Assembly: GCA_030619715.1 (NCBI GenBank)
Contig: JAUXAW010000003.1
Location: 1 to 50,619, forward strand
Direction of reading: 5' to 3'
DNA from: a candidate division WWE3 bacterium
GTDB lineage: Bacteria > Patescibacteriota > WWE3 > JAUXAW01
Length of the DNA: 50,619 bases
The notes beneath the pieces were generated by a model that saw only the letters and a program-made list of their open reading frames with translations, was not told where the DNA came from and did no database searches. How positions within the stretch are numbered: position 1 is the first letter of the stretch; each line of letters opens with the position of its first letter. The position numbers and the translations under genes were made by a program. This document shows, one piece after another, positions 1 through 50,523 of the stretch.

Positions 1-2063
1 GAAAAATTAAAGAATTCATCTTGGCGATGCAGATCGAGCGGCGTTACAGCAAAGATGAAATTTTGCAGATGTACCTCAACGAGGTTCCCTACGGTGGCCA
101 GGCCTGGGGAATTGAGGCGGCGGCGCAGATGTATTTTGGCAAAAAGACGGCTGAGTTAAGTTTGGCCGAAGGAACACTTCTTGCCGGTCTTCCTCAAGCC
201 CCAACGCGTTTTTCTCCTTACAACGACCCCGATGCGGCCAAATGGCGTCAGGAGCAGGTTCTAAGACGAATGGTTGAGGACGGCTATATCACCCAAGAAG
301 AGGCCGACCAGACCGCGGCCGAGGAGCTCGAATTCAAACCGCTGGGAGCCAACATCCGCGCCGCCCATTTTGTGATGTATGTCCGCCAACTTCTGGAGGA
401 AAGATACGGAACTAAATTGGTCGAGCAGGGCGGTCTTAAAGTGACCACGACCATTGACATTGAGATGCAGGAGCGGGCCGAGCGCATCGTCTACGATGAG
501 ATTAATAAAGCCAAAGGGCTTCTGGTGGGCAACGGGGCGCTGGTGGCGATGGACCCCAAGACCGGTCAGATTTTGGCGATGGTTGGCTCCAAAGATTATT
601 TTGACGTCTCAACCGATGGCAATGTCAACGTTACTTTACGTGAGCGCCAACCGGGTTCGTCGATTAAGCCGATTAATTATGTAACCGCCTTTAAGCAGGG
701 TTACACACCGGCGTCGGTGGTGATGGATGTCCAGACAACTTTTCCCGGTGGGGTCGGACTGCCGGATTATGTTCCCGTAAATTATGATGGGAAATTTAGG
801 GGCCCGTTGCAATTTAGATATACTCTGGGCAGCTCGATTAACCTCGCCGCGGTTAAGGTTCTAAAATTGGTGGGCGTTCCGGCGATGCTCGACACGGCCC
901 ACGCGATGGGAATCACAACTTTGAATGAGCCCGAGCGCTACGGTCTCTCGCTGACTTTGGGCGGGGGTGAGGTTAAACTTCTGGATATGGCGACGGTTTA
1001 TTCGACCTTTGCCACCGGTGGGGTGCGTCGCGATCCGGTCGCTATTCTCAAGGTCGAGGATAGAAACGGCAATGTTTTAGAGGAGTGGCAGTCAACCGAG
1101 GGACGGCGGGTTTTGAGTCAGGAGCACGCCTATCTTATTTCGGAAATTCTTGCGGACAACAACGCTCGGCTTTTGGCCTTTGGGGAGTGGTCGCCTTTGA
1201 GAATCGCCGGTTATCAGGTGGCGGTGAAGACGGGAACGACCGATGACAAGCGGGACAACTGGACGATTGGCTACACACCGTCATTGGTGATTGGGGTTTG
1301 GGTTGGCAACAATGACAACACGCCGATGCATCCGCGCTTGGCGTCGGGAATTACCGGGGCGGCTCCAATCTGGCATCGGGTGATGGAGGCTTTTTTGAAG
1401 GAAAGGCCGAAGGAATATTTTGTCAGACCCGGAGGAATTGTGACGGCAACGGTGGACAAGCTTTCCGGGCTTCTTCCTAGCGAGGGAACCGAGGAGACGC
1501 GGGAGGAAATTTTTGTCCGAGGAACGGTGCCGGCGGAGGAAGATAATATGCATCAGGTTTTGGAAATCTGCACCGCCGACGGAAAGCTGGCGACCGATGC
1601 CTGTGAGCGTGCCGGCCAGGTTGAGGAAAAAAGTTTCGTTGTTTTGAAGGCCCAGTTGCCGGAATGGCAGGAGTTTGTGGACAGGTGGGTTGATGAAGTT
1701 TACAAAGACGATCCTAAATATCATCCGCCGGAGGAAAAGTCAACGATTTATTTTGGTCCGAGCGGCGATCCCAGTTTGCGTGAGGAGCCGTTGGTTGAGA
1801 TTCATTCGCCGGGGAACGGTGATGATGTTGATTCTGATTTTGAGATTAAGGTCTCGGTTTGGACACCTTACGATGTGGTCAAGGTTGAATTTTACGTTGA
1901 TGGTTCGCTCGTTGGCTCGCCGTTAACTTCGCTTTTGGAGAGACCTTACAAAAAGACCCTCCATCTCTCGAGCGGAATGAGTGGTGAGCACAAGTTAAGG
2001 GTCCTCGGCTACGACTCCGCCGGCAACGTCGGCGAAAGTGAAATAAAAATCAACGTTAAATAG
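1..2063 (+). CDS. Class A penicillin-binding protein (GT51 transglycosylase + transpeptidase), 5' end truncated by window edge
   Basis: Frame stays open from nt 3 to the listed TTG at 21. GT51 motifs RYSKDEILQMYLNEVPYGG and GLPQAP. Transpeptidase motifs SSIKP (SxxK), SSIN (SxN), KTGTT (KTG). Extra beta-rich C-terminal tail. Confidence 0.9.
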   Translation, partial: KIKEFILAMQIERRYSKDEILQMYLNEVPYGGQAWGIEAAAQMYFGKKTAELSLAEGTLLAGLPQAPTRFSPYNDPDAAKWRQEQVLRRMVEDGYITQEEADQTAAEELEFKPLGANIRAAHFVMYVRQLLEERYGTKLVEQGGLKVTTTIDIEMQERAERIVYDEINKAKGLLVGNGALVAMDPKTGQILAMVGSKDYFDVSTDGNVNVTLRERQPGSSIKPINYVTAFKQGYTPASVVMDVQTTFPGGVGLPDYVPVNYDGKFRGPLQFRYTLGSSINLAAVKVLKLVGVPAMLDTAHAMGITTLNEPERYGLSLTLGGGEVKLLDMATVYSTFATGGVRRDPVAILKVEDRNGNVLEEWQSTEGRRVLSQEHAYLISEILADNNARLLAFGEWSPLRIAGYQVAVKTGTTDDKRDNWTIGYTPSLVIGVWVGNNDNTPMHPRLASGITGAAPIWHRVMEAFLKERPKEYFVRPGGIVTATVDKLSGLLPSEGTEETREEIFVRGTVPAEEDNMHQVLEICTADGKLATDACERAGQVEEKSFVVLKAQLPEWQEFVDRWVDEVYKDDPKYHPPEEKSTIYFGPSGDPSLREEPLVEIHSPGNGDDVDSDFEIKVSVWTPYDVVKVEFYVDGSLVGSPLTSLLERPYKKTLHLSSGMSGEHKLRVLGYDSAGNVGESEIKINVK

Positions 2064-2074
2064 AGCAGTGAGGG

Positions 2075-4099
2075 TCATTTTTGGCGGACCTTTGCTTTGA
2101 GGGATTTTTCGAGGGTATCTATAATCTTTTGGCGGATTTTTTGGACTTCGGCGTCGATTAGGGTTTTCTTGGCGTGTTGATAAGTTATCCTCAAAGTGAC
2201 ACTTCCCTTCTCCGGATAGATGTCAGTAACTTCGAGCTCCTTAACCAGCTTTGACTGCTCCTCAATCAGCGAAATAACGTCAGCAATAAAAGTTTTCGGC
2301 GGCAAAATAACCGAAAGGTCCTCGATGATTGGGGGGTACTCCGGGATTGGTTCGTAGGTTTTGAGGTCCGAGGCAAGCTCGGCGATGGTGTCAAAGTCAA
2401 GATCGAATACTACAACAGAATCCTCAATAATCTTAATGGTTCCGATTAGCGCTGATTGACAACGGATTAGCGCGGATCCGCCAGAGGCGGACTCAAATTT
2501 GACATTTTTAATACCCAGCTCTGCTAACAAACTCTCAACGATTCCTTTTACGACGTAAAAAAGCTGGGAGCTAAAGGGCTGAAGAGCTAAAGAGCTAACT
2601 ATTCCCGTCAGTCTAAAGTTTTCCCGTGGAAGTTCTTGACCTTCTTGGGGAATGTAAACGCGCTCGAGTTCGAAGAGTTTTATTTCGTCCGAGTGGTGTT
2701 GGTTTTCGGAGAGATTTTTCAGTAGTGACGGTAGCAACGAGGGCCGCATGTATTCTAAGTCTTTATTGAGCGGGTTTCGCACCTTTAAGGATTTAGAGGG
2801 ATCGAGGTTAGAATCAAGAAGGATTTGTTTGGATATAAAAGAATAGTTGTAGACTTCATAAAAGCCTTGATGCTTGAGAAAATCTTTGGCTTTGTCCTCC
2901 CAGTAAAATTTCTTTTCTCGAGGAACGGGAGGAATTACTCCTTCGGGCATTAGGTTCGGCAGGTTGTGGTAGCCGTAAAGCCGAGCAATTTCTTCGATCA
3001 AGTCTGCGGCGATTTCGATGTCTTTGTCTCGCCAGGAGGGAACCTTGGCGACGACGGTCGGGATTTGGAAGGCGGAGTTTTTAATGCGAATTCCGAAGCC
3101 CAACGACTTTAGAATTTCGACGACTTCTTCTTTTTCGATACGGACGCCGAGCAATTTTTCAACCTCGGGAATTTCCAGCTCGACCTCATGTGGCTGCCAA
3201 ACTTTGTTCTTGATATCCACAAGGCTTGAAGCGATGCGGGCGTTGGCATTCTCTTTTAACATCTCGATCGCTCGGTTCATCGCGGGGATAATTCCCTGAG
3301 GGTCGATCCCTTTTTCAAATCGGGCCGAGGCCTCGGTGCGCAGGCCCAAAGCTTGTGAGGTCTTGCGAATGCGGACCGGGTCATAGATTTGGATAAAAAG
3401 TAAAATGCGTTTGGTGTTTTCGCCAACTTCGGAATTTTTTCCACCCACAATGCCGCAGAGATCCACCAGCTTTCCGCCACTCTCAATGACAATTGCCCCC
3501 TTGGGTATTTCTCGCTCTACCCCATCAAGCGTCACCAATTTTTCACCCTTCCGACTTTCTCGTAGTACCATCTCTTTCTGTGCTTCCGTCCCCTTCTGCG
3601 TTTCTGTGTTTGCGAGTCTATCGAAGTCGAAGATATGCATCGGCTGGCCCAACTCCAACATCAGATAGTTGGAGACATCAACGATGTTATTCAATGCTCG
3701 AACACCAGACATTTCCAGCCGGTCGCGGATGAGTTTCGGTGAGGTTTTGATTTCGATGTTGTCTAAAACGATAGCAGTGAAACGTGGACAAAGTTCGGGG
3801 TCGGTGATGGTAACGTCCAAAAGATCTTTCTTTCCTTCGGCAGATTTGAGGTGGTCGGTGATTTCCGGAGGAGTAAGTTCGACTTTGGTGGTGGCGGCAA
3901 CTTCGCGGGCGATGCCAAGGACGCTTAAAGTGTCGTAGCGGTTGGGGGTAATTTCGATTTCGTAAACAGTATCATCCCCTTTCTTATGAAGCTTCTCGAC
4001 GGAAAGAGAACAAAGGGAAAGCTTGTCCGCAATGGTTTGTGGAGCAGCGTCAGTTTTGATAAAATCTCGGAGCCAAGAATCAGGAATCAATATATTCAT
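2075..4099 (-). CDS. pheT: Phenylalanine--tRNA ligase beta subunit, short form lacking the OB-fold tRNA-binding (B2) domain
   Basis: 674 aa. IEITPNRYDTLSVLGIAREVA (B3/B4 entry) follows the first ~45 aa directly. B5, catalytic-like and C-terminal FDX-ACB-like regions present. Immediately downstream of pheS. Confidence 0.92.
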   Translation of the reverse strand: MNILIPDSWLRDFIKTDAAPQTIADKLSLCSLSVEKLHKKGDDTVYEIEITPNRYDTLSVLGIAREVAATTKVELTPPEITDHLKSAEGKKDLLDVTITDPELCPRFTAIVLDNIEIKTSPKLIRDRLEMSGVRALNNIVDVSNYLMLELGQPMHIFDFDRLANTETQKGTEAQKEMVLRESRKGEKLVTLDGVEREIPKGAIVIESGGKLVDLCGIVGGKNSEVGENTKRILLFIQIYDPVRIRKTSQALGLRTEASARFEKGIDPQGIIPAMNRAIEMLKENANARIASSLVDIKNKVWQPHEVELEIPEVEKLLGVRIEKEEVVEILKSLGFGIRIKNSAFQIPTVVAKVPSWRDKDIEIAADLIEEIARLYGYHNLPNLMPEGVIPPVPREKKFYWEDKAKDFLKHQGFYEVYNYSFISKQILLDSNLDPSKSLKVRNPLNKDLEYMRPSLLPSLLKNLSENQHHSDEIKLFELERVYIPQEGQELPRENFRLTGIVSSLALQPFSSQLFYVVKGIVESLLAELGIKNVKFESASGGSALIRCQSALIGTIKIIEDSVVVFDLDFDTIAELASDLKTYEPIPEYPPIIEDLSVILPPKTFIADVISLIEEQSKLVKELEVTDIYPEKGSVTLRITYQHAKKTLIDAEVQKIRQKIIDTLEKSLKAKVRQK
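2568..2599. repeat. Tandem octamer GAGCTAAA GGGCTGAA GAGCTAAA GAGCTAAC inside pheT
   Basis: Read directly. On the coding (minus) strand it encodes SSLALQPFSS. Nt 2578-2598 are the exact reverse complement of 22838-22858 in ppsA. Confidence 0.85.
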
Positions 4100-14359: not shown

Positions 14360-14406
14360 GCGAGTCGCCTGCCCGCCTTTGGTGGGTCGCAAATTTCCCC
14401 TCTACT
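14356..14406. repeat. P1 element copy 3, with a 21-nt GC-rich insertion between the arms
   Basis: TTTTGCGAGTC [gcctgcccgcctttggtgg] GTCGCAAATTTCCCCTCTAC. The insertion itself can pair (CCCGCC / GGTGGG). Confidence 0.75.
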
Positions 14407-45179: not shown

Positions 45180-45266
45180 GCGGATGTGGCGGAACTGGCA
45201 GACGCGCAGCGTTCAGAACGCTGTGCTCGAAAGAGCGTGTGAGTTCAAGTCTCACCATCCGCACCA
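45180..45266 (+). tRNA. tRNA-Leu (anticodon CAG), CCA encoded
   Basis: GCGGATG/CATCCGC acceptor, anticodon loop TTCAGAA, long variable arm. Confidence 0.92.
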
Positions 45267-45275
45267 TAAAGACTG

Positions 45276-45364
45276 GCGGACGTGGTGGAATTGGTAGACA
45301 CGCAGCCTTGAGGTGGCTGTGCCCGTGAAAGGGCGTGAAGGTTCAAATCCTTTCGTCCGCACCA
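45276..45364 (+). tRNA. tRNA-Leu (anticodon GAG), CCA encoded
   Basis: GCGGACG/CGTCCGC acceptor, anticodon loop TTGAGGT, long variable arm. Confidence 0.92.
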
Positions 45365-45365
45365 T

Positions 45366-45441
45366 GGTCGGATAGCTCAGCTGGAAGAGCGTCTGGTTTA
45401 CATCCAGGAGGTCAGAGGTTCGAGCCCTCTTCCGACCACCA
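45366..45441 (+). tRNA. tRNA-Val (anticodon TAC), CCA encoded
   Basis: GGTCGGA/TCCGACC acceptor, anticodon loop TTTACAT. Confidence 0.92.
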
Positions 45442-45450
45442 TTTCAATAA

Positions 45451-45526
45451 GCTGAGGTAGCAAAGTTGGTCAATGCACCGCTCTGAAAAAGCGGCCATGT
45501 CGGTTCGATTCCGACCCTCAGCACCA
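45451..45526 (+). tRNA. tRNA-Phe (anticodon GAA), CCA encoded
   Basis: GCTGAGG/CCTCAGC acceptor, anticodon loop CTGAAAA. Confidence 0.92.
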
Positions 45527-45527
45527 C

Positions 45528-45602
45528 GCGAGGGTAGTTCAGAGGTAGAACGTCTCGTTGCCAACGAGAAGGTCGCGGGTTCAAGTCCCGTCCCTCGCTC
45601 CA
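45528..45602 (+). tRNA. tRNA-Gly (anticodon GCC), CCA encoded
   Basis: GCGAGGG/CCCTCGC acceptor, anticodon loop TTGCCAA. Confidence 0.92.
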
Positions 45603-45625
45603 ATACTACAAGACCTAAATTAGCA

Positions 45626-45681
45626 GAACGGTCCGATGCCCATCGGACGGGTCGTGGGTTTGAGTCCCATCGCCCGCTCCA
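45626..45681 (+). pseudogene. 5'-truncated tRNA-Gly-like fragment (CCC in an 8-nt anticodon loop)
   Basis: From the D-stem 3' strand to CCA it parallels the adjacent tRNA-Gly (GGTCGTGGGTTTGAGTCCCATCGCCCGCTCCA). No GCGGGCG 5' acceptor strand or D-arm 5' half upstream. Confidence 0.6.
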
Positions 45682-45690
45682 TGGGTTTTT
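45666..45690 (+). terminator. Possible terminator of the tRNA array, built from the tRNA fragment
   Basis: CCCAT (45666-45670) pairs with ATGGG (45681-45685), followed by TTTTT. The stem is short. Confidence 0.35.
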
Positions 45691-45714: not shown

Positions 45715-45742
45715 ATTTACCATAAACTGGATTATGGTAATC
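45715..45742. repeat. P2 site a (dif-like 11-6-11): ATTTACCATAA ACTGGA TTATGGTAATC
   Basis: Read directly. Overlaps the stop codon of the TrpR/YerC-like gene. Confidence 0.85.
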
Positions 45743-46046
45743 AAAGGTTAAGAATTCTCTTTTTGAAAGAGGTACCATACCTTCTTAGAGTGTTTTGAGC
45801 GCGGGCGATTGTGGTAGAACCAACCTTCAACTCATCTTTAATATCTTGATACGGCTTTTTCTCGATAACCTTCTTAAAAACTTCCAATCTCTTAGCCAGA
45901 ATTAAAACTTCGGAGGAGGTTAGAAACTTTCCCCAAAATTCTCGAGCCGCAGCAGAAGAACTAAAAGAAGACAATGCTCTCCATAAATTTCTTTTCAATC
46001 TATTCTCCACCTTTATGTCAACTGTAAAGCGGTTTATCTTTCCCAT
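45741..46046 (-). CDS. TrpR-related YerC/YecD-family DNA-binding protein
   Basis: 101 aa. FLTSSEVLILAKRLEVFK...YQDIKDELKVGSTTIARAQN is the typical family HTH region, as recalled. Confidence 0.7.
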   Translation of the reverse strand: MGKINRFTVDIKVENRLKRNLWRALSSFSSSAAAREFWGKFLTSSEVLILAKRLEVFKKVIEKKPYQDIKDELKVGSTTIARAQNTLRRYGTSFKKRILNL

Positions 46047-46069
46047 AATTTTCCCTACCCTATTTTATT

Positions 46070-46097
46070 AGTTACCATAAACTGGATTATGGTAGTT
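46070..46097. repeat. P2 site b: AGTTACCATAA ACTGGA TTATGGTAGTT
   Basis: Read directly. Lies between the YerC-like start and the hydrolase stop. Confidence 0.85.
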
Positions 46098-46103
46098 GAA
46101 GTA

Positions 46104-46661
46104 TTATTCTTCGGTTTCTTCGATAATTTTCAAAAGCGTTGGGAATTGGGCATATTGAGCGCCAACCTCCAGATTAAAATGGCCTTGGCCTTCCTTAACA
46201 ATTAGTTCGGCGGTAAGTTTTTCGGCAATAAACTCGGCGTGGTCGAGAGGAACATAGGGATCGTTGTCTGAGTGGAGAAGAATAATTTTTCTCGCCTGCT
46301 TTTTAATCTTTTCCCAGTTGAAAGGCTCGGAAAAAAGATCTTTAAGGTTTGGCCAACCGAGATCTCCTTTGAAAACGGAGACTAAGAAGGCCCGATCAAC
46401 GACGGTGTCCTCGGGTAGATTTTGCAAGAGATAAAGAATTAAAACCGCACCAGAGCTGTGACCGATGATCAACGAATCCTTATCGAACTCCCAATTGTCA
46501 AGGACATATTTGGCATTCACTTTGGAGCTGGGATACATCGAGTTGGGCAGATCGGGGACCCAAACTTTGTAGCCTTTTTCTTCTAACTCTTGTTTTATCC
46601 ACTGGAACCAGTTTGAGCTTGAGTCGGCTCCGGTGCCGTGAAGAATGAGTGCGTTTTTCAT
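46104..46661 (-). CDS. Alpha/beta hydrolase, RBBP9/YdeN-like serine hydrolase
   Basis: LILHG, nucleophile elbow GHSSG, LLHSDNDPYVP, GHF. TGgTAGGAT lies 9 nt before the ATG (leaderless). Confidence 0.78.
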   Translation of the reverse strand: MKNALILHGTGADSSSNWFQWIKQELEEKGYKVWVPDLPNSMYPSSKVNAKYVLDNWEFDKDSLIIGHSSGAVLILYLLQNLPEDTVVDRAFLVSVFKGDLGWPNLKDLFSEPFNWEKIKKQARKIILLHSDNDPYVPLDHAEFIAEKLTAELIVKEGQGHFNLEVGAQYAQFPTLLKIIEETEE

Positions 46662-46705
46662 TTCAACTTAATCCTACCATAAAGCTACTACCAACGGTCT
46701 GCTTT

Positions 46706-46733
46706 TATTACCATAAACCGGATTATGGTAGTT
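46706..46733. repeat. P2 site c: TATTACCATAA ACCGGA TTATGGTAGTT
   Basis: Read directly. Lies between the hydrolase start and the HExxH-protein stop. A lone half-site CCTACCATAA is at 46673-46682. Confidence 0.85.
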
Positions 46734-46766
46734 AAAATGAGAAACGCCCTAGTGACGCTGGTGCCG

Positions 46767-47204
46767 TCATAGGGCGTTAGTGGTCGGATCTCGACCTTGG
46801 TGGGCTAGTTCCCAGTACTCTTGGATACACCAAGAGTCAATCATAAAATTCGGGAGCGAGGCCCACAAGAGTCCTCCCGCTACAGCCAAGGCAAGAATCG
46901 GGTTTAGGCACCACGCTGTTTTGGAAATAACCAGAATGGTGACGATTGTCCCGATTGGTCCTGCGGCGGTAGCGATTGTCCCTCGGGCTGGTGTCAGTCC
47001 CTTCGGAATAGCCACAAAACCTGCCGGCAGAAACTTTTTTTGCCAAGGAGCTATGCAGGAGAACCACGGTCTGTCTTCACGAGGGAGTATAGGCGCCAGG
47101 CCTATCCCCCACGATGGTGGTCTCGATCCAACCAGCAGGTAGCCAGTAAGGTGCGATCCCTCATGAATGGCTACCCACACCCACAGTAAGATATTTTTTA
47201 TCAT
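46767..47204 (-). CDS. Small membrane protein with an HExxH motif (putative zinc metallopeptidase-like)
   Basis: IHEGSHL near the N-terminus, 3-4 hydrophobic segments. GGAGGAGG Shine-Dalgarno site. Family not assignable. Confidence 0.5.
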   Translation of the reverse strand: MIKNILLWVWVAIHEGSHLTGYLLVGSRPPSWGIGLAPILPREDRPWFSCIAPWQKKFLPAGFVAIPKGLTPARGTIATAAGPIGTIVTILVISKTAWCLNPILALAVAGGLLWASLPNFMIDSWCIQEYWELAHQGRDPTTNAL

Positions 47205-47371
47205 CAGCCTCCTCCTTTCCGTTGTGTTGTGTGAAAGACTTACCTTACCAGACCATCCAGAAACCGGATTTTCCGAGCAAACCGGTGAGGTTAGTTTTGT
47301 TTGTTAAGGTACAAAGAAACGCCTTGGAGAGGCGCTATTACACCCTCTCCAGTATTTTGATTTCTGGTCGT

Positions 47372-47412
47372 ATTTTACCACAAACTCATAGTTTTGTCAA
47401 GGGTGGGTTGAG
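47372..47412 (-). promoter_or_regulatory. Promoter (-35 TTGACA 47400-47395, 17 nt, TGTGG-TAAAAT 47377-47372), copy 1 of a duplicated 37-nt promoter block
   Basis: 47376-47412 matches 48168-48204 at 35 of 37 positions. About 160-nt leader to ATG 47204. Confidence 0.65.
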
Positions 47413-47448
47413 AAGTTTTGGGCAGGCAAGTCGCAAGGTTTTTCGGAG

Positions 47449-47488
47449 ACAAAAATAAGAACGGGGAGAGCTTGATGAGCTTCCCCCC
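47449..47488 (-). terminator. Intrinsic terminator after the macro-domain gene
   Basis: Minus strand: GGGGGAAGCT CATCA AGCTCTCCCC followed by GTTCTTATTTTTG. Confidence 0.55.
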
Positions 47489-47509
47489 GCCCAGGGTGAG
47501 ACGGTAATG

Positions 47510-48055
47510 TTACACGCTGCCGGGCAGGCGCCTCATTGCCTCCGCCAACATAGCCTCTGCCAACATACGCTGTGTGCCTGCGTTGCTATACACGACGAAA
47601 TACACAACTATATCAAGGTTGTGATTCTCCGTGTAGAAATCGTGCGTAGCTTTCGCAATGGCCTGCACAGTCGTCCGAGCATCGGGCTCGTCGGGGTGGA
47701 CACCCAGCGTCACGCCTGTGCGTATAGCCGGGAAAGCCAACCTTTTGTACCCGTGCTCTTTGGCTGCCTCTAGTGCACTCTTGACCAGCGGGCCCACAGG
47801 ACCCTCCAGATCGTCGACGACGAAGATGACGTCGTCAAACTCCCCTAGATGCAGCTCGTGGTCGCCTTTTGCCACAACGACCTGCTGGTTCCTCAAGGGC
47901 GTCATAGCCCCCGCCTGCCGATGATAACGATTACCGGCGACTGAGTTGATTGCCCTGTCTACACCACCGGACCACATGCCTTCGGAGTTGATGAGGGTCA
48001 CGATGGCGTCGACGGGAATGGTGGTGATGTCCCCTGATCGTACCTGTACTTGCAT
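47510..48055 (-). CDS. Macro-domain protein (ADP-ribose binding/hydrolase-like)
   Basis: MQVQVRSGDITTIPVDAIVTLINSEG...GGVDRAI... Start ATG 48055 after AAGGAGG. Visibly GC-richer than most of the window. Confidence 0.75.
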   Translation of the reverse strand: MQVQVRSGDITTIPVDAIVTLINSEGMWSGGVDRAINSVAGNRYHRQAGAMTPLRNQQVVVAKGDHELHLGEFDDVIFVVDDLEGPVGPLVKSALEAAKEHGYKRLAFPAIRTGVTLGVHPDEPDARTTVQAIAKATHDFYTENHNLDIVVYFVVYSNAGTQRMLAEAMLAEAMRRLPGSV

Positions 48056-48163
48056 CTCTCTGCCTCCTTTGCAGATTTGGCCTCGCTGTTTTGGCAAGGC
48101 ACTAGAATGGTGAATAAAAGGTTTTAACTGTCCCTCTCTTCGGTGCTCCAGTCTTTTGAGACA

Positions 48164-48204
48164 GTTATACCACAAACTCATAGTTTTGTCAAGAATGGGT
48201 TGAG
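48164..48204 (-). promoter_or_regulatory. Promoter (-35 TTGACA 48192-48187, 17 nt, TGTGG-TATAAC 48169-48164), copy 2 of the duplicated promoter block
   Basis: See 47372-47412. About 100-nt leader to ATG 48055. Confidence 0.65.
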
Positions 48205-48216
48205 GGGGTTCGCCAA

Positions 48217-48972
48217 TTAGCTTTCTTCTTTACCGATTAGTTTTCTGTATTCACAATATTCGCAACCCTCGCCGGAGGGCGGGATTTCGTTGGAGTCGAG
48301 ACATTTTTTGATTTCAAAAATGGTCGGCTCGACCCAGGAGTCGTCGCCCTCATGGGAGATAATCTGAACCTCAAACTCCAACCGACCGTCGAAGACCCGC
48401 CCGCCCCTTAGTCCGTTGGCGAAGACAAAATAGGCCGTGTCCGAAACGTCAAATCCCTCTTGCCGAAAGATCCACTGATAAATCTCCGCCTGCTTTTTGT
48501 AACTCTGCTTGTATTCGTCGTCCAAGGAGATTTTCTTGGAAGTGCTGGTCGCTTTGTAGTCGACGATGTGTAGTTGATTATTGGGATTGACCCAAATGTC
48601 GTCAATGATTCCGCAGATTTCCAAATTAGTGGGCTTGTGCAAGGTAGCGGCGCCTTTATATGTGTAATGATCGTTTCTCCACTCAGGCAAGTCCGGGTGT
48701 TTAAAGGGCACGACATTGATTCCGCATCTTTTCATTAAGGCGTGCCGCTTGCCGTCCTTGCGCAAAAGGTCGAATTCGTTTTTGAGAAGATGATCGACGG
48801 CGCTATTGAGCGCCCAACCGGGCATGCTTGGCCTCCCCAACCCCAGTCGTCGGTCCAGATAAAAACATCTTGGACACTTCAAAAACAAATCAATCTTGCT
48901 CCGACTGATTCGGAAAGGAATTTTGGAGCTTGAATTATAAATATTACCCTGCCTCTTGCGATATTTGTTCAT
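48217..48972 (-). CDS. PD-(D/E)xK nuclease, Cas4/RecB-like with Cys cluster
   Basis: N-terminal CPRCFY; GIIDD...LHIVDYKAT (D...D-x-K); QAEIYQW (QxxxY); C-terminal CEYCEY. Solitary, with no other cas genes. Confidence 0.72.
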   Translation of the reverse strand: MNKYRKRQGNIYNSSSKIPFRISRSKIDLFLKCPRCFYLDRRLGLGRPSMPGWALNSAVDHLLKNEFDLLRKDGKRHALMKRCGINVVPFKHPDLPEWRNDHYTYKGAATLHKPTNLEICGIIDDIWVNPNNQLHIVDYKATSTSKKISLDDEYKQSYKKQAEIYQWIFRQEGFDVSDTAYFVFANGLRGGRVFDGRLEFEVQIISHEGDDSWVEPTIFEIKKCLDSNEIPPSGEGCEYCEYRKLIGKEES

Positions 48973-48980
48973 TTGAGACT

Positions 48981-48986
48981 AGTCTA
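48981..48986 (-). promoter_or_regulatory. -10 TAGACT (TGt-extended); ATG 48972 lies 8 nt downstream (leaderless)
   Basis: Read on the minus strand, within the palindrome AGACTAGTCT. Confidence 0.45.
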
Positions 48987-49016
48987 ACACAAAAGAAGAA
49001 CATAGAGCGCCTGTTC

Positions 49017-49045
49017 TTGACAGCATCTTATTATTGCGTTATAGT
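49017..49045 (+). promoter_or_regulatory. Promoter: -35 TTGACA (49017-49022), 17 nt, -10 TATAGT (49040-49045)
   Basis: Read directly. About 60-nt leader with GGAAGGAGGTG Shine-Dalgarno. Confidence 0.65.
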
Positions 49046-49111
49046 GATTACAACACGTCAAAACGTTGAAAGAAGAGCAAATAAGAATTCTAGAGGAAGG
49101 AGGTGAGAGCG

Positions 49112-49342
49112 GTGCCTATTTTCGGAGGAGACTGCTCGGTTTGCGACGGTACTGGAGATTGTCCGGAGTGCAAAGGGGGTGGGTACGGAGGTCTTCTCGA
49201 CCAGTTCATTGCCGGTAATGTAGCCCCACTGTTCGGGGCGAGCAAAGAAGACGTGGAAGAGATGGAGCAGTGTGATAGATGCCACGGTTCCACCAAGTGC
49301 GACCACTGTGGTGGGACAGGCGAAGAACCGGACGAAGACTAG
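49112..49342 (+). CDS. DnaJ-type zinc-finger miniprotein (four CxxCxGxG-like motifs)
   Basis: CSVCDGTG, CPECKGGG, CDRCHGST, CDHCGGTG. GTG 49112 lies 6 nt after GGAGGTG (the ORF-track start at 49103 sits inside the Shine-Dalgarno site). Confidence 0.6.
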   Translation: MPIFGGDCSVCDGTGDCPECKGGGYGGLLDQFIAGNVAPLFGASKEDVEEMEQCDRCHGSTKCDHCGGTGEEPDED

Positions 49343-49423
49343 TCCCGGCGCCTCAAACCACTTGAGGACACCTTTAGCGCAAGATGCTATAAGTGTCCTC
49401 ACTTTTATTTATCTATTTATCTC

Positions 49424-49451
49424 ACTTACCATACACTGGATTATGGTGAGT
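49424..49451. repeat. P2 site d: ACTTACCATAC ACTGGA TTATGGTGAGT
   Basis: Read directly. Lies between convergent gene ends (49342 and 49510). Confidence 0.8.
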
Positions 49452-49509
49452 AAAGTGGGAGGGGGTAGTTGGAATTTTGGCGGGCGGGCAGTTCGGGGGG
49501 TTTTTGGTG

Positions 49510-50523
49510 TTACTTAGGCATAGGTTTTCGCGTTCTCTTTTTCTTCGGCTTCTGCGAAGGCAAGCTGGGAAAGTTATCTAAGTCAATCTCATTCTCTCCA
49601 ACCTTGAGATTTTTCTTGGTTACCCAGACAAATCCTTTTTCGGGAGTAATCACCGCGACATCAACCGGACCCCCAACTCCGGGGATAGCTCCGGGACTCG
49701 CTTTGATACCATCAGAAAAACGTTGGATGGCTGAAGTTGTTTGAATCATCAAAACACAGAAATCGACGGCGTCCTGAAGAGTCATCGTCCCCCACTGAAT
49801 AGAGTATTCAAGATTGCGGAGTTGTTTATTCACTTCCTCCTGACTATATTTTTGCACTGCCTCTTTGACAAACTTTACATTACTAATCCGCCCATCCCAA
49901 CCCAGAACAATTCTGGAAACAACATCCATCTGACCGATCCAAGAGGCACCATATTCCTTACCCCGCTCTTGGCTATCCCGCTTCTTCTCAACTTTACCGG
50001 GGATTCGGATGGTGTAAACCTTATGGGAACCGTCTTCGTCGTACCCACCAACAAGGATATTAATACTGTCCACTCCCGCCCGCCCTTGCTGCTCTTTGCC
50101 GTTTTTATCTTTAAACGTGAATTCAATAAAGTGCCCTTTCTTTTCTATCTTTAATATTTCAAGCCCCTGTCGCTTTAGATCGGCTTCGACTTTCTTTGGT
50201 AGACTCTCCAACCTTTTTTCCCAATCGTATTTCTTGCTAAACAGGTTATGTAGGCCGTTTGCCACCTCCAGAACACCGAGGTTTTCAACACCGCTCTTTT
50301 GCCCAAATTCGCTGAGAAACTTACTGATATTTTTCAGAACACCGTCTTCAGACAAAAATGCCATACCAGTTACCGCCGCACCGATCCGGCGGTTGATCTC
50401 AAAAACTTTAAAGGCATTGTCTGACCCAATCCGGGCCATCCCCTTACGGTTACGATAGGACTGCCGCGAATCTGCAGCTAAAACAATTCCTTCTGGTGTT
50501 GTAGTATTAATTGCTAGGCTCAT
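49510..50523 (-). CDS. Proteasome-beta-like Ntn hydrolase, divergent, with internal insertions and a basic C-terminal tail
   Basis: MSLAINTTTPEGIVLAADSR (Thr run + Asp17-like), NAFKVF (Lys33-like), LVGGYDEDG..VY, GASWIG, VGGPVDVAVITPEKG. Tail KPKKKRTRKPMPK. TAGGAGG Shine-Dalgarno site. Confidence 0.65.
   Translation of the reverse strand: MSLAINTTTPEGIVLAADSRQSYRNRKGMARIGSDNAFKVFEINRRIGAAVTGMAFLSEDGVLKNISKFLSEFGQKSGVENLGVLEVANGLHNLFSKKYDWEKRLESLPKKVEADLKRQGLEILKIEKKGHFIEFTFKDKNGKEQQGRAGVDSINILVGGYDEDGSHKVYTIRIPGKVEKKRDSQERGKEYGASWIGQMDVVSRIVLGWDGRISNVKFVKEAVQKYSQEEVNKQLRNLEYSIQWGTMTLQDAVDFCVLMIQTTSAIQRFSDGIKASPGAIPGVGGPVDVAVITPEKGFVWVTKKNLKVGENEIDLDNFPSLPSQKPKKKRTRKPMPK

Follow-up and report, generated by a model that had tools for sequence, protein, structure and literature searches.

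A candidate cassette array at clustered dif-like sites around a TrpR-family gene in a candidate division WWE3 bacterium

Integrative mobile elements exploiting Xer (IMEX), such as CTXphi, TLCphi and VGJphi of Vibrio cholerae and the gonococcal genetic island, are integrase-less foreign DNA housed at the chromosomal dif site. Of these, TLCphi encodes a small helix-turn-helix (HTH) factor, XafT, which acts on Xer (PMC6744903, PMC9226527). The pdif modules of Acinetobacter are small, often carry a single gene and occur in varied combinations between 28-bp Xer sites of 11-6-11 layout (PMC7399989, PMC11705084). A dif site beside the xer gene is a hallmark of single-recombinase Xer systems (PMC5357621), and the dif of Pyrococcus abyssi reads ATTGGATATAA-TCGGCC-TTATATCTAAA (PMC2958812). 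Here, we describe a locus with features of several of these systems in a candidate division WWE3 bacterium, on contig JAUXAW010000003.1 of assembly GCA_030619715.1, which was analysed over its entire length (50,619 bp, hereafter the window). Four co-oriented, dif-like 28-bp sites delimit small gene units beside a tRNA array, and one of these units, carrying a gene of the TrpR/YerC family, recurs between paired sites in related contigs. The sites are probably crossover points.

The consensus of the four sites is TTACCATAA-ACYGGA-TTATGGTA. The four sequences listed in the original prediction were all present at the start positions given in Table 1, their asymmetric centre (ACTGGA, or ACCGGA in site 3) pointed in the same direction in 4 of 4, and the start-to-start spacings of 355, 636 and 2718 bp agreed with the proposed units of 355 bp, 636 bp and 2.7 kb. 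On either side of the 6-bp centre, the arms were dyad-symmetric over eight contiguous inner positions and over 9 of 11 positions overall in each site. The proposed likeness to an Xer core was borne out by this arm-6-arm layout and by the inner arm sequence CATAA / TTATG, with CATAA-N6-TTATGGTAA read directly in the sites. The right arm, TTATGGTAA, resembles TTATGTTAA, the XerD arm of Escherichia coli dif. A conserved T-rich extension on the plus-strand side makes the true repeat unit about 40 nucleotides long, that is, longer than 28 bp. All sites were intergenic, and sites 1 and 4 lay between convergent 3' ends, where, as had been predicted, no promoter is needed and the stems have no U-tract. 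The pattern TTACCATAA-N6-TTATGGTA, with up to three mismatches allowed, matched at these four places alone in the 50.6-kb contig; the chance expectation from shuffled sequences was a mean of 0.02, and no shuffle reached 8 strand-hits. With a position weight matrix (PWM) built from 16 related sites, the four scored 39.7–44.1 bits, compared with at most 8 bits for the rest of the 50,619 bases and a shuffle maximum of 14.3 bits. A looser core search of the window returned nothing credible beyond the four sites, and neither the core search nor the PWM revealed a copy in the other 46.9 kb of the contig. A possible decayed fifth site (Table 1), whose CCAGAAACCGGATT agrees with CCATAAACCGGATT at 13 of 14 positions, fell below the PWM threshold and is therefore of low confidence.

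The relatives compared were ten contigs with the TrpR-like gene (L124–L127 and L129–L134), and cassettes were compared between contigs by blastn. Exact-protein look-ups with the window proteins returned only the same genome (SRR14872668, 100% identical) and hence no strain variants; two Logan contigs from that accession were 100% identical to the window. The TrpR-like gene was bracketed by two copies of the palindrome in all ten related contigs, with the 5' copy some 20–60 nucleotides ahead of the start codon and the 3' copy 0–30 nucleotides past the stop codon; the gene had first been treated as an ordinary passenger. Its unit recurred with differing neighbours across these contigs, and each of the other units was seen once. 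The arm-6-arm layout was common to all related lineages, and the arms ACCATAA/TTATGGT were conserved across them, with ATCATAG/CTATGAT in L130, a compensatory change on both arms. The centre varied between lineages and was the same or nearly the same within one genome: TCCAGT in the window and L124–L126; ACCAGT in L127 and L133; GATATG / GATATC in L129 and L131; ACTAGT and GCCAGT in L134; and TCTAGA in L130.

Comparison of relatives revealed module-level replacement, with breakpoints falling at the sites. Between L124 and L125, homology covered the TspO gene and ended with the final base of the first site (L124 2-147); it resumed at the first base of the second site (L124 position 694 onward), with unrelated genes in between, namely a NUDIX gene on the reverse strand in L124 and a 230-residue gene of unknown kind in L125. 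Homology between the window and L124 began at site 2 and ran at 93% identity through the TrpR-like gene to 20 nucleotides past site 1, a flank thus conserved together with that site. On the other side of site 2, the hydrolase unit of the window and the NUDIX unit of L124 occupy the same position and are unrelated; this position holds the 230-residue gene in L125 and Ham1 in L126, the latter with a different nuclease-like gene on the other side. Site 4 showed a 42-nucleotide match (93%) to the second site of L126, 3' of the TrpR-like gene, though the neighbours differ. As homology with L124 stops 20 nucleotides beyond site 1, a rearrangement lies beside that site and not inside it. The units of the window also form a mosaic in base composition, with GC contents of 0.38–0.57 versus 0.48 ± 0.03 in the housekeeping genes. 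Separately, the right ends of L125, L131, L132 and L134 were found inside, or at most 6 nucleotides after, the site 3' of the TrpR-like gene; such ends may reflect branching of the assembly graph, i.e. population heterogeneity.

In L127 and its relative L133, an Xer-family gene is convergent to the TrpR-like gene and has its 3' end at the downstream site. The L127 recombinase scored 240 bits with the XerD model, 236 with XerC and 215 with XerA (cut-off 220), and 119 bits with the integron-integrase model TIGR02249 (cut-off 265). Its best solved relatives were E. coli XerD and P. abyssi XerA, and its homologues numbered thousands in CPR3, WWE3, Roizmanbacteria and Microgenomates. For the Xer of one relative metagenome-assembled genome, labelled Cloacimonadota by NCBI, the nearest named homologues came from CPR3, WWE3 and Microgenomates. 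The L127 protein (2046-3038, minus strand) has an insertion of about 25–30 residues around positions 218–250 when compared with E. coli XerD and P. abyssi XerA, presumably roughly where integron integrases have their extra domain.

The locus coincides with a switch from positive to negative GC skew, a signature of the replication terminus. Over 1–45 kb, the mean skew was +0.079, with 9 of nine 5-kb bins positive; it was only +0.013 at 45–50 kb, −0.15 beyond site 4 and −0.072 in the continuation on the contig of a close relative. When minus-strand genes alone were considered, the top-strand skew was +0.056 to the left and −0.08 to the right. The same switch was found in L127 and not in L129.

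By comparison with described systems, the array appears most like IMEX stacking at dif together with pdif modules, with cassettes of integron-like size, and it departs from IMEX, pdif modules and integrons in a defining feature of each. Like IMEX, it has co-oriented dif-like flanking sites, tandem stacking and a terminus-like location, and none of its flanked units carries a recombinase gene. However, the units measure 0.36–2.7 kb, are mostly single genes and have no replication, phage or transfer functions, and since replication and phage genes are absent they are not classical IMEX. Further differences are that both flanking sites are intact, that the HTH protein belongs to the TrpR family and not to DUF3653, and that the symmetric arms imply a single recombinase. 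With pdif modules, the units share their small size, often with a single gene, and the 28-bp 11-6-11 sites. The sites that bound pdif modules, which lie mostly on plasmids, are inversely oriented (XerC/D and XerD/C), whereas here the sites are all direct, the context is chromosomal and the arms are symmetric, so that C or D sides cannot be assigned; moreover, the host belongs to an uncultured lineage whose Xer groups with Patescibacteria. The proposal of Xer-mobilised modules is thus partly supported, by site-bounded swaps, an Xer neighbour and terminus-like skew, and the units are neither pdif modules nor classical IMEX.

The resemblance to integrons resides in compact, mostly single-gene units of mixed origin, a palindromic site at each junction, a content varying between close relatives and the lack of a promoter, by consensus scan, for the hydrolase and TrpR-like units. 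Unlike integrons, the locus has no IntI, the neighbouring L127 recombinase scoring far below the cut-off of that model; its sites are 28 bp (about 40 with the flank) and conserved in sequence, whereas attC sites are imperfect hairpins of 57–141 bp whose conservation is structural only; the genes point in both directions; and neither attI nor Pc was identified. Single-recombinase Xer systems (XerS/difSL, XerH/difH and archaeal XerA/dif) have near-symmetric arms as here, a dif adjoining the xer gene in the case of XerS and XerH (PMC5357621) and conserved AT-rich flanks in Thermococcales (PMC2958812), and the L127 recombinase comes within 5 bits of the XerA cut-off. These systems have one dif per chromosome, whereas 2–4 copies with genes between them are found here, and it is the 3' end of xer that adjoins the site, instead of its upstream side. 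Full-text searches of the literature retrieved no such cassette array, nor any TrpR-family gene placed between dif-like sites.

We see an even chance that Xer-type crossover takes place at the sites, as the junctions of a cassette array located at dif or next to it, and that the TrpR-like protein binds the same palindrome. The four sites would be core sites of an Xer-type tyrosine recombinase at or near the chromosome dimer-resolution locus; that Xer itself is the enzyme is evenly balanced. Each unit (355, 636 or 2718 bp) would enter as a circle with one site and recombine with a resident site inside the 6-bp centre, which would leave the unit flanked by two co-oriented sites. Replacement of units would result from this reaction run backwards or from exchange between arrays. 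The dimeric TrpR/YerC-family protein of the constant unit would most likely bind the same palindrome and repress its own gene at a promoter that overlaps or adjoins the 5' site. It may also occlude or gate the sites, so that directly repeated sites would be stably kept. Recombination alone leaves unexplained the universal link to the TrpR-like gene, the stability of the pair and the perfect palindromes, whereas the combined model accounts for all observations. A more far-reaching version, which we consider rather unlikely, is an integrase-less minimal analogue of the integron, in which the single housekeeping Xer of a Patescibacteria-like lineage would take up, stack and exchange single-gene cassettes at the chromosomal dif and the TrpR-family protein of the constant cassette would act as gatekeeper by binding the same 28-bp sites; the gating would be comparable to that of LexA on IntI or XafT on XerD, and would explain the persistence of tandem dif sites. 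How uncultured bacteria with reduced genomes acquire new genes is poorly known. If the crossover model is true, the locus would represent the simplest gene-capture system described, needing only a 28-bp site and the dimer-resolution recombinase of the cell, and would link Xer/dif biology, pdif and IMEX elements, and integrons. A further question would then be how several copies of dif can be tolerated at the terminus of one chromosome. Through the constant TrpR-like gene, it can be tested whether a single palindrome is used by a repressor as well as by a recombinase.

Several observations weigh against the crossover model. The original prediction had looked to an Xer-type tyrosine recombinase as the mover, and an Xer-family gene does abut a site in L127 and L133, but no tyrosine recombinase gene was found in the 50.6-kb contig. 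The adjacency is confined to one lineage, and in the L129 genome the Xer orthologue is on a different contig. Direct repeats with near-identical centres flank the TrpR-like gene in every lineage, and since an active Xer should excise a directly repeated unit, its activity would have to be low or gated; no recombination product (excision, circle or deletion junction) was observed. The two centres of L134 differ at 2 of 6 positions. In L130 the sites, in L129 the 3' site and in L134 the 5' site form full palindromes, centre included, so they have no polarity and fit a symmetric repressor better than a recombination site. A YbaK-like gene present in L129 and absent from L131 is not bounded by sites. 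Finally, the relatives' contigs are short metagenome assemblies from few projects, and the skew data to the right of the switch are short (1.2 kb here plus 6.7 kb in the relative).

The strongest competing explanation, which we nonetheless deem unlikely, is that the palindromes are solely operators of the TrpR/YerC-like repressor, controlling its own gene and accessory genes in a small local regulon, with the 3' copy used for looping or as a roadblock and the turnover of nearby genes being ordinary island flux. YerC corresponds to HisR, and TrpR-family factors bind 20-bp 7-N6-7 palindromes, cacTTTA-N6-TAAAgtg, and regulate their own gene (PMC9413887). The palindrome here may therefore be, or also be, an operator of the TrpR-like protein. 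Its conserved core, ACCATAA-N6-TTATGGT, has the same 7-N6-7 layout and a lineage-specific consensus, and precedes a TrpR-family gene for which autoregulation is expected (PMC9413887), although the consensus agrees with cacTTTA at only 3 of 7 positions. The closest PDB entries to the protein are YerC-type structures (3G1C, 3FRW and 3KOR), and its AlphaFold2 model, with a predicted local distance difference test score of 83.6, matches TrpR folds. With this fold and such relatives it is a plausible site binder, and binding seems slightly more probable than not. The subfamily is tiny, with 13 clusters among 5.8 billion proteins and only two representatives at E<1e-30 among 1.84 billion, and relatives were found neither in plasmids and phages by tblastn nor in viral contigs. 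Operator function also fits the upstream position of the 5' copy in 10 of 10 contigs. This copy overlaps or abuts the promoter of the TrpR-like gene in several lineages: in L127 it abuts a TTGACA-17-TAAAAT promoter, and in L129 and L131 only, the right arm runs by eye into an extended −10 (TGGTATAAT and TGGTAGAAT). Site 3 (hydrolase), L125 site 1 and L126 site 2 are likewise in promoter regions. The stable retention of paired sites, the full palindromes of several lineages and the compensatory arm changes of L130 agree with repressor binding as well.

Operators alone, however, would not require the sites at convergent 3' ends, at least five in number, which have no promoter that could be regulated (sites 1 and 4 of the window, L124 site 1, and the 3' sites of L127/L133 and of L130). 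Nor would they require a 3' copy after the stop codon in all ten contigs irrespective of the next gene. The exact replacement of non-homologous genes, in either orientation, between intact sites is a further point against them, as is the lack of an account of how each new gene acquires flanking copies. The arms are symmetric at 9 of 11 positions, more than the 7 bp that HisR-type arms span; the centre in the window lineage lacks symmetry and yet keeps one orientation and the same sequence throughout, apart from ACCGGA in site 3; genes for histidine or tryptophan are absent nearby; and the Xer adjacency and the skew switch would be coincidences. Were the operator explanation true, the result would be smaller: a new and very rare YerC/HisR branch with an unusual two-operator arrangement around its own gene. 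In the gap separating site 3 from the start of the hydrolase gene, a solitary arm, CTACCATAA, was also noted (46672-46680). Its minus-strand sequence, TATGGTAGGAT, is an extended −10-like element that stands 13 nucleotides ahead of the ATG and resembles those of L129 and L131.

It is less probable still that a different recombinase uses the sites for attachment or resolution, or that they are remnants of integrative elements which arrived in succession next to tRNA genes, the Xer neighbour of L127 being incidental in that case. Such an origin would suit a window that encodes no recombinase, the tRNA genes adjoining the locus in the window, L124, L129 and L130, the tRNA-like 3' fragment 33 nucleotides from site 1 and the large serine recombinase next to tRNA-Leu in L129. 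Yet sites and tRNA genes have no sequence in common, the units are single genes without integrases, and the serine recombinase occurs in one lineage only. Attachment sites of serine recombinases are built differently from arm-6-arm Xer sites, and the layout here, with its inner CATAA/TTATG, is of the Xer type.

An RNA or structural role, as terminator or stabiliser hairpins or as a dispersed repeat of the repetitive extragenic palindromic (REP) type, is highly improbable: each intergenic site could form a hairpin of 8–9 bp (−8.5 to −12.5 kcal/mol, z −1.1 to −3.7), but these hairpins are weak, AU-rich and devoid of a U-tract on either strand, the loop sequence is conserved as much as the stem, canonical GC-rich terminators with U-tracts stand alongside (one about 9 nucleotides from site 3, at 46743-46759 on the minus strand), and no copies occur at the approximately 45 other gene ends of the contig, the confinement to one locus arguing against a REP-like nature. 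The occurrence at very many gene ends that would have contradicted the original prediction was thus not seen within the contig. The canonical parts of the region, i.e. sigma-70 promoters (TTGACA-17-TAAAAT) and GC-rich U-tailed terminators, do not coincide with the sites, and no sigma-70 consensus match overlaps any site of the window.

Searches beyond the relatives returned chance matches. The exact motif had 0 matches in genome species representatives, and the centre-relaxed motif gave at least 120 singletons, which were scattered over unrelated phyla and lay mostly within open reading frames and were therefore attributed to chance; genomes of the candidate phyla radiation were not enriched among them. 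A recombinase match was found at only 3 of 120 singleton loci (L013, L002 and L040). In two of these, palindromes lie 0.5–1.3 kb from tyrosine recombinase genes (L002 6281-6302 and L013 2950-2971), with inverted arms of 13 bp in L002 (Caldilineaceae), and these may be genuine recombinase sites in unrelated phyla. Joint Genome Institute metagenomes yielded one motif match, which looks like chance, on a possibly eukaryotic contig without prokaryote-like gene structure, and in viral contigs motif variants matched coding sequence only, again by chance.

Table 1. Positions of the sites, gene units and flanking features in the window.
Feature	Position	Strand	Description
Site 1	45715..45742		ATTTACCATAA-ACTGGA-TTATGGTAATC; shares bases with the TrpR-like stop codon; tRNA array with its 3' end towards the site
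Site 2	46070..46097		23 nucleotides upstream of the TrpR-like start codon, 6 nucleotides after the hydrolase stop codon
Site 3	46706..46733		Centre ACCGGA; 44 nucleotides upstream of the hydrolase start codon
Site 4	49424..49451		ACTTACCATAC-ACTGGA-TTATGGTGAGT; between the convergent 3' ends of the Zn-ribbon and proteasome-like genes
Possible decayed fifth site	47252..47279		Centre ACCGGA and part of the left arm kept; same orientation
Left flank, five tRNA genes followed by a tRNA-like 3' fragment	45180..45682	+	
TrpR/YerC-family HTH gene	45741..46046	-	101 residues; Pfam Trp_repressor 1.4e-11; GC 0.38
Alpha/beta serine hydrolase, single-gene unit	46104..46661	-	185 residues; Pfam Ser_hydrolase 5e-16; GC 0.44
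HExxH membrane protein	46767..47204	-	145 residues; GC 0.53; own promoter 47372-47400, own terminator 46743-46759
Macro-domain protein	47510..48058	-	GC 0.574
PD-(D/E)XK Cas4-like nuclease	48217..48972	-	Pfam PDDEXK_1 8e-13; weak cas4 match
Small CxxC Zn-ribbon protein	49103..49342	+	Own TTGACA-17-TATAGT promoter, own terminator hairpin; GC 0.571
Right flank, resident proteasome-like gene	49510..50523	-	Top-strand GC skew -0.21

The gene content of the three units (Table 1) matches that originally read from them, i.e. a TrpR/YerC-like gene, a hydrolase of the Ser_hydrolase family, and the set of HExxH, Macro, Cas4-like and Zn-ribbon genes. No homologues of the unit genes were found in phage and plasmid collections. 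The remaining 45 kb of the window hold housekeeping genes (PheS, enolase, ClpP, trigger factor, LexA and others), and an Rfam scan of the region returned tRNAs only. Within the longest unit, a 40-nucleotide repeat (47373-47412 and 48165-48204, 93% identical) is a canonical promoter on the minus strand (TTGACA-17-TAAAAT, with TATAAC replacing the last hexamer in one copy) and precedes two adjacent genes of differing GC content, the HExxH membrane gene and the Macro gene. Similar terminators (AGCG..GGCGTT-TCT) are located 3' of the same genes, at 46743-46759 and 47318-47336, so that the pair look like two expression units made of the same parts.

On the left flank, an 80-nucleotide stretch after tRNA-Gly (45603-45682) received no ARAGORN or Rfam call and ends 33 nucleotides from site 1. 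Its 3' half resembles a tRNA T-arm and a CCA-bearing acceptor end (GGGTTTGAGTCCCATCGCCCGCTCCA), and the stretch may be either a tRNA fragment or an unusual tRNA-like RNA. The tRNA-Leu gene (window 45276-45364; L124 1131-1168) points the same way as the TrpR-like gene in both L124 and L129 and is inverted in the window. The serine recombinase gene of L129 (6302-7930, minus strand; Resolvase, Recombinase and Zn_ribbon_recom domains), beside the tRNA-Leu that follows the TrpR locus, is probably part of an integrated element.

On the right flank, homology of the window to the close relative L135 ends at 49541, in the region of the proteasome-like gene. The L135 proteasome-like protein is at least 90% identical and has about 105 extra C-terminal residues, and the contig ends 116 nucleotides after the gene, before any possible site. 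A 40-nucleotide GC-rich element (CCCGACTTGCCTGCCCGCC...) was found at unrelated places in the window (14361-14400) and in L135 (6610-6649), with 92.5% identity, and a similar stretch is present at window 49470-49500; it may belong to a dispersed repeat or terminator family of the lineage. Beyond the right end of the window, L135 (795-5222) and L136 (81-4508) encode a RadC-like protein, a 1143-residue MmeI-type restriction-modification enzyme and a LexA-like HTH protein, which is defence-island content.

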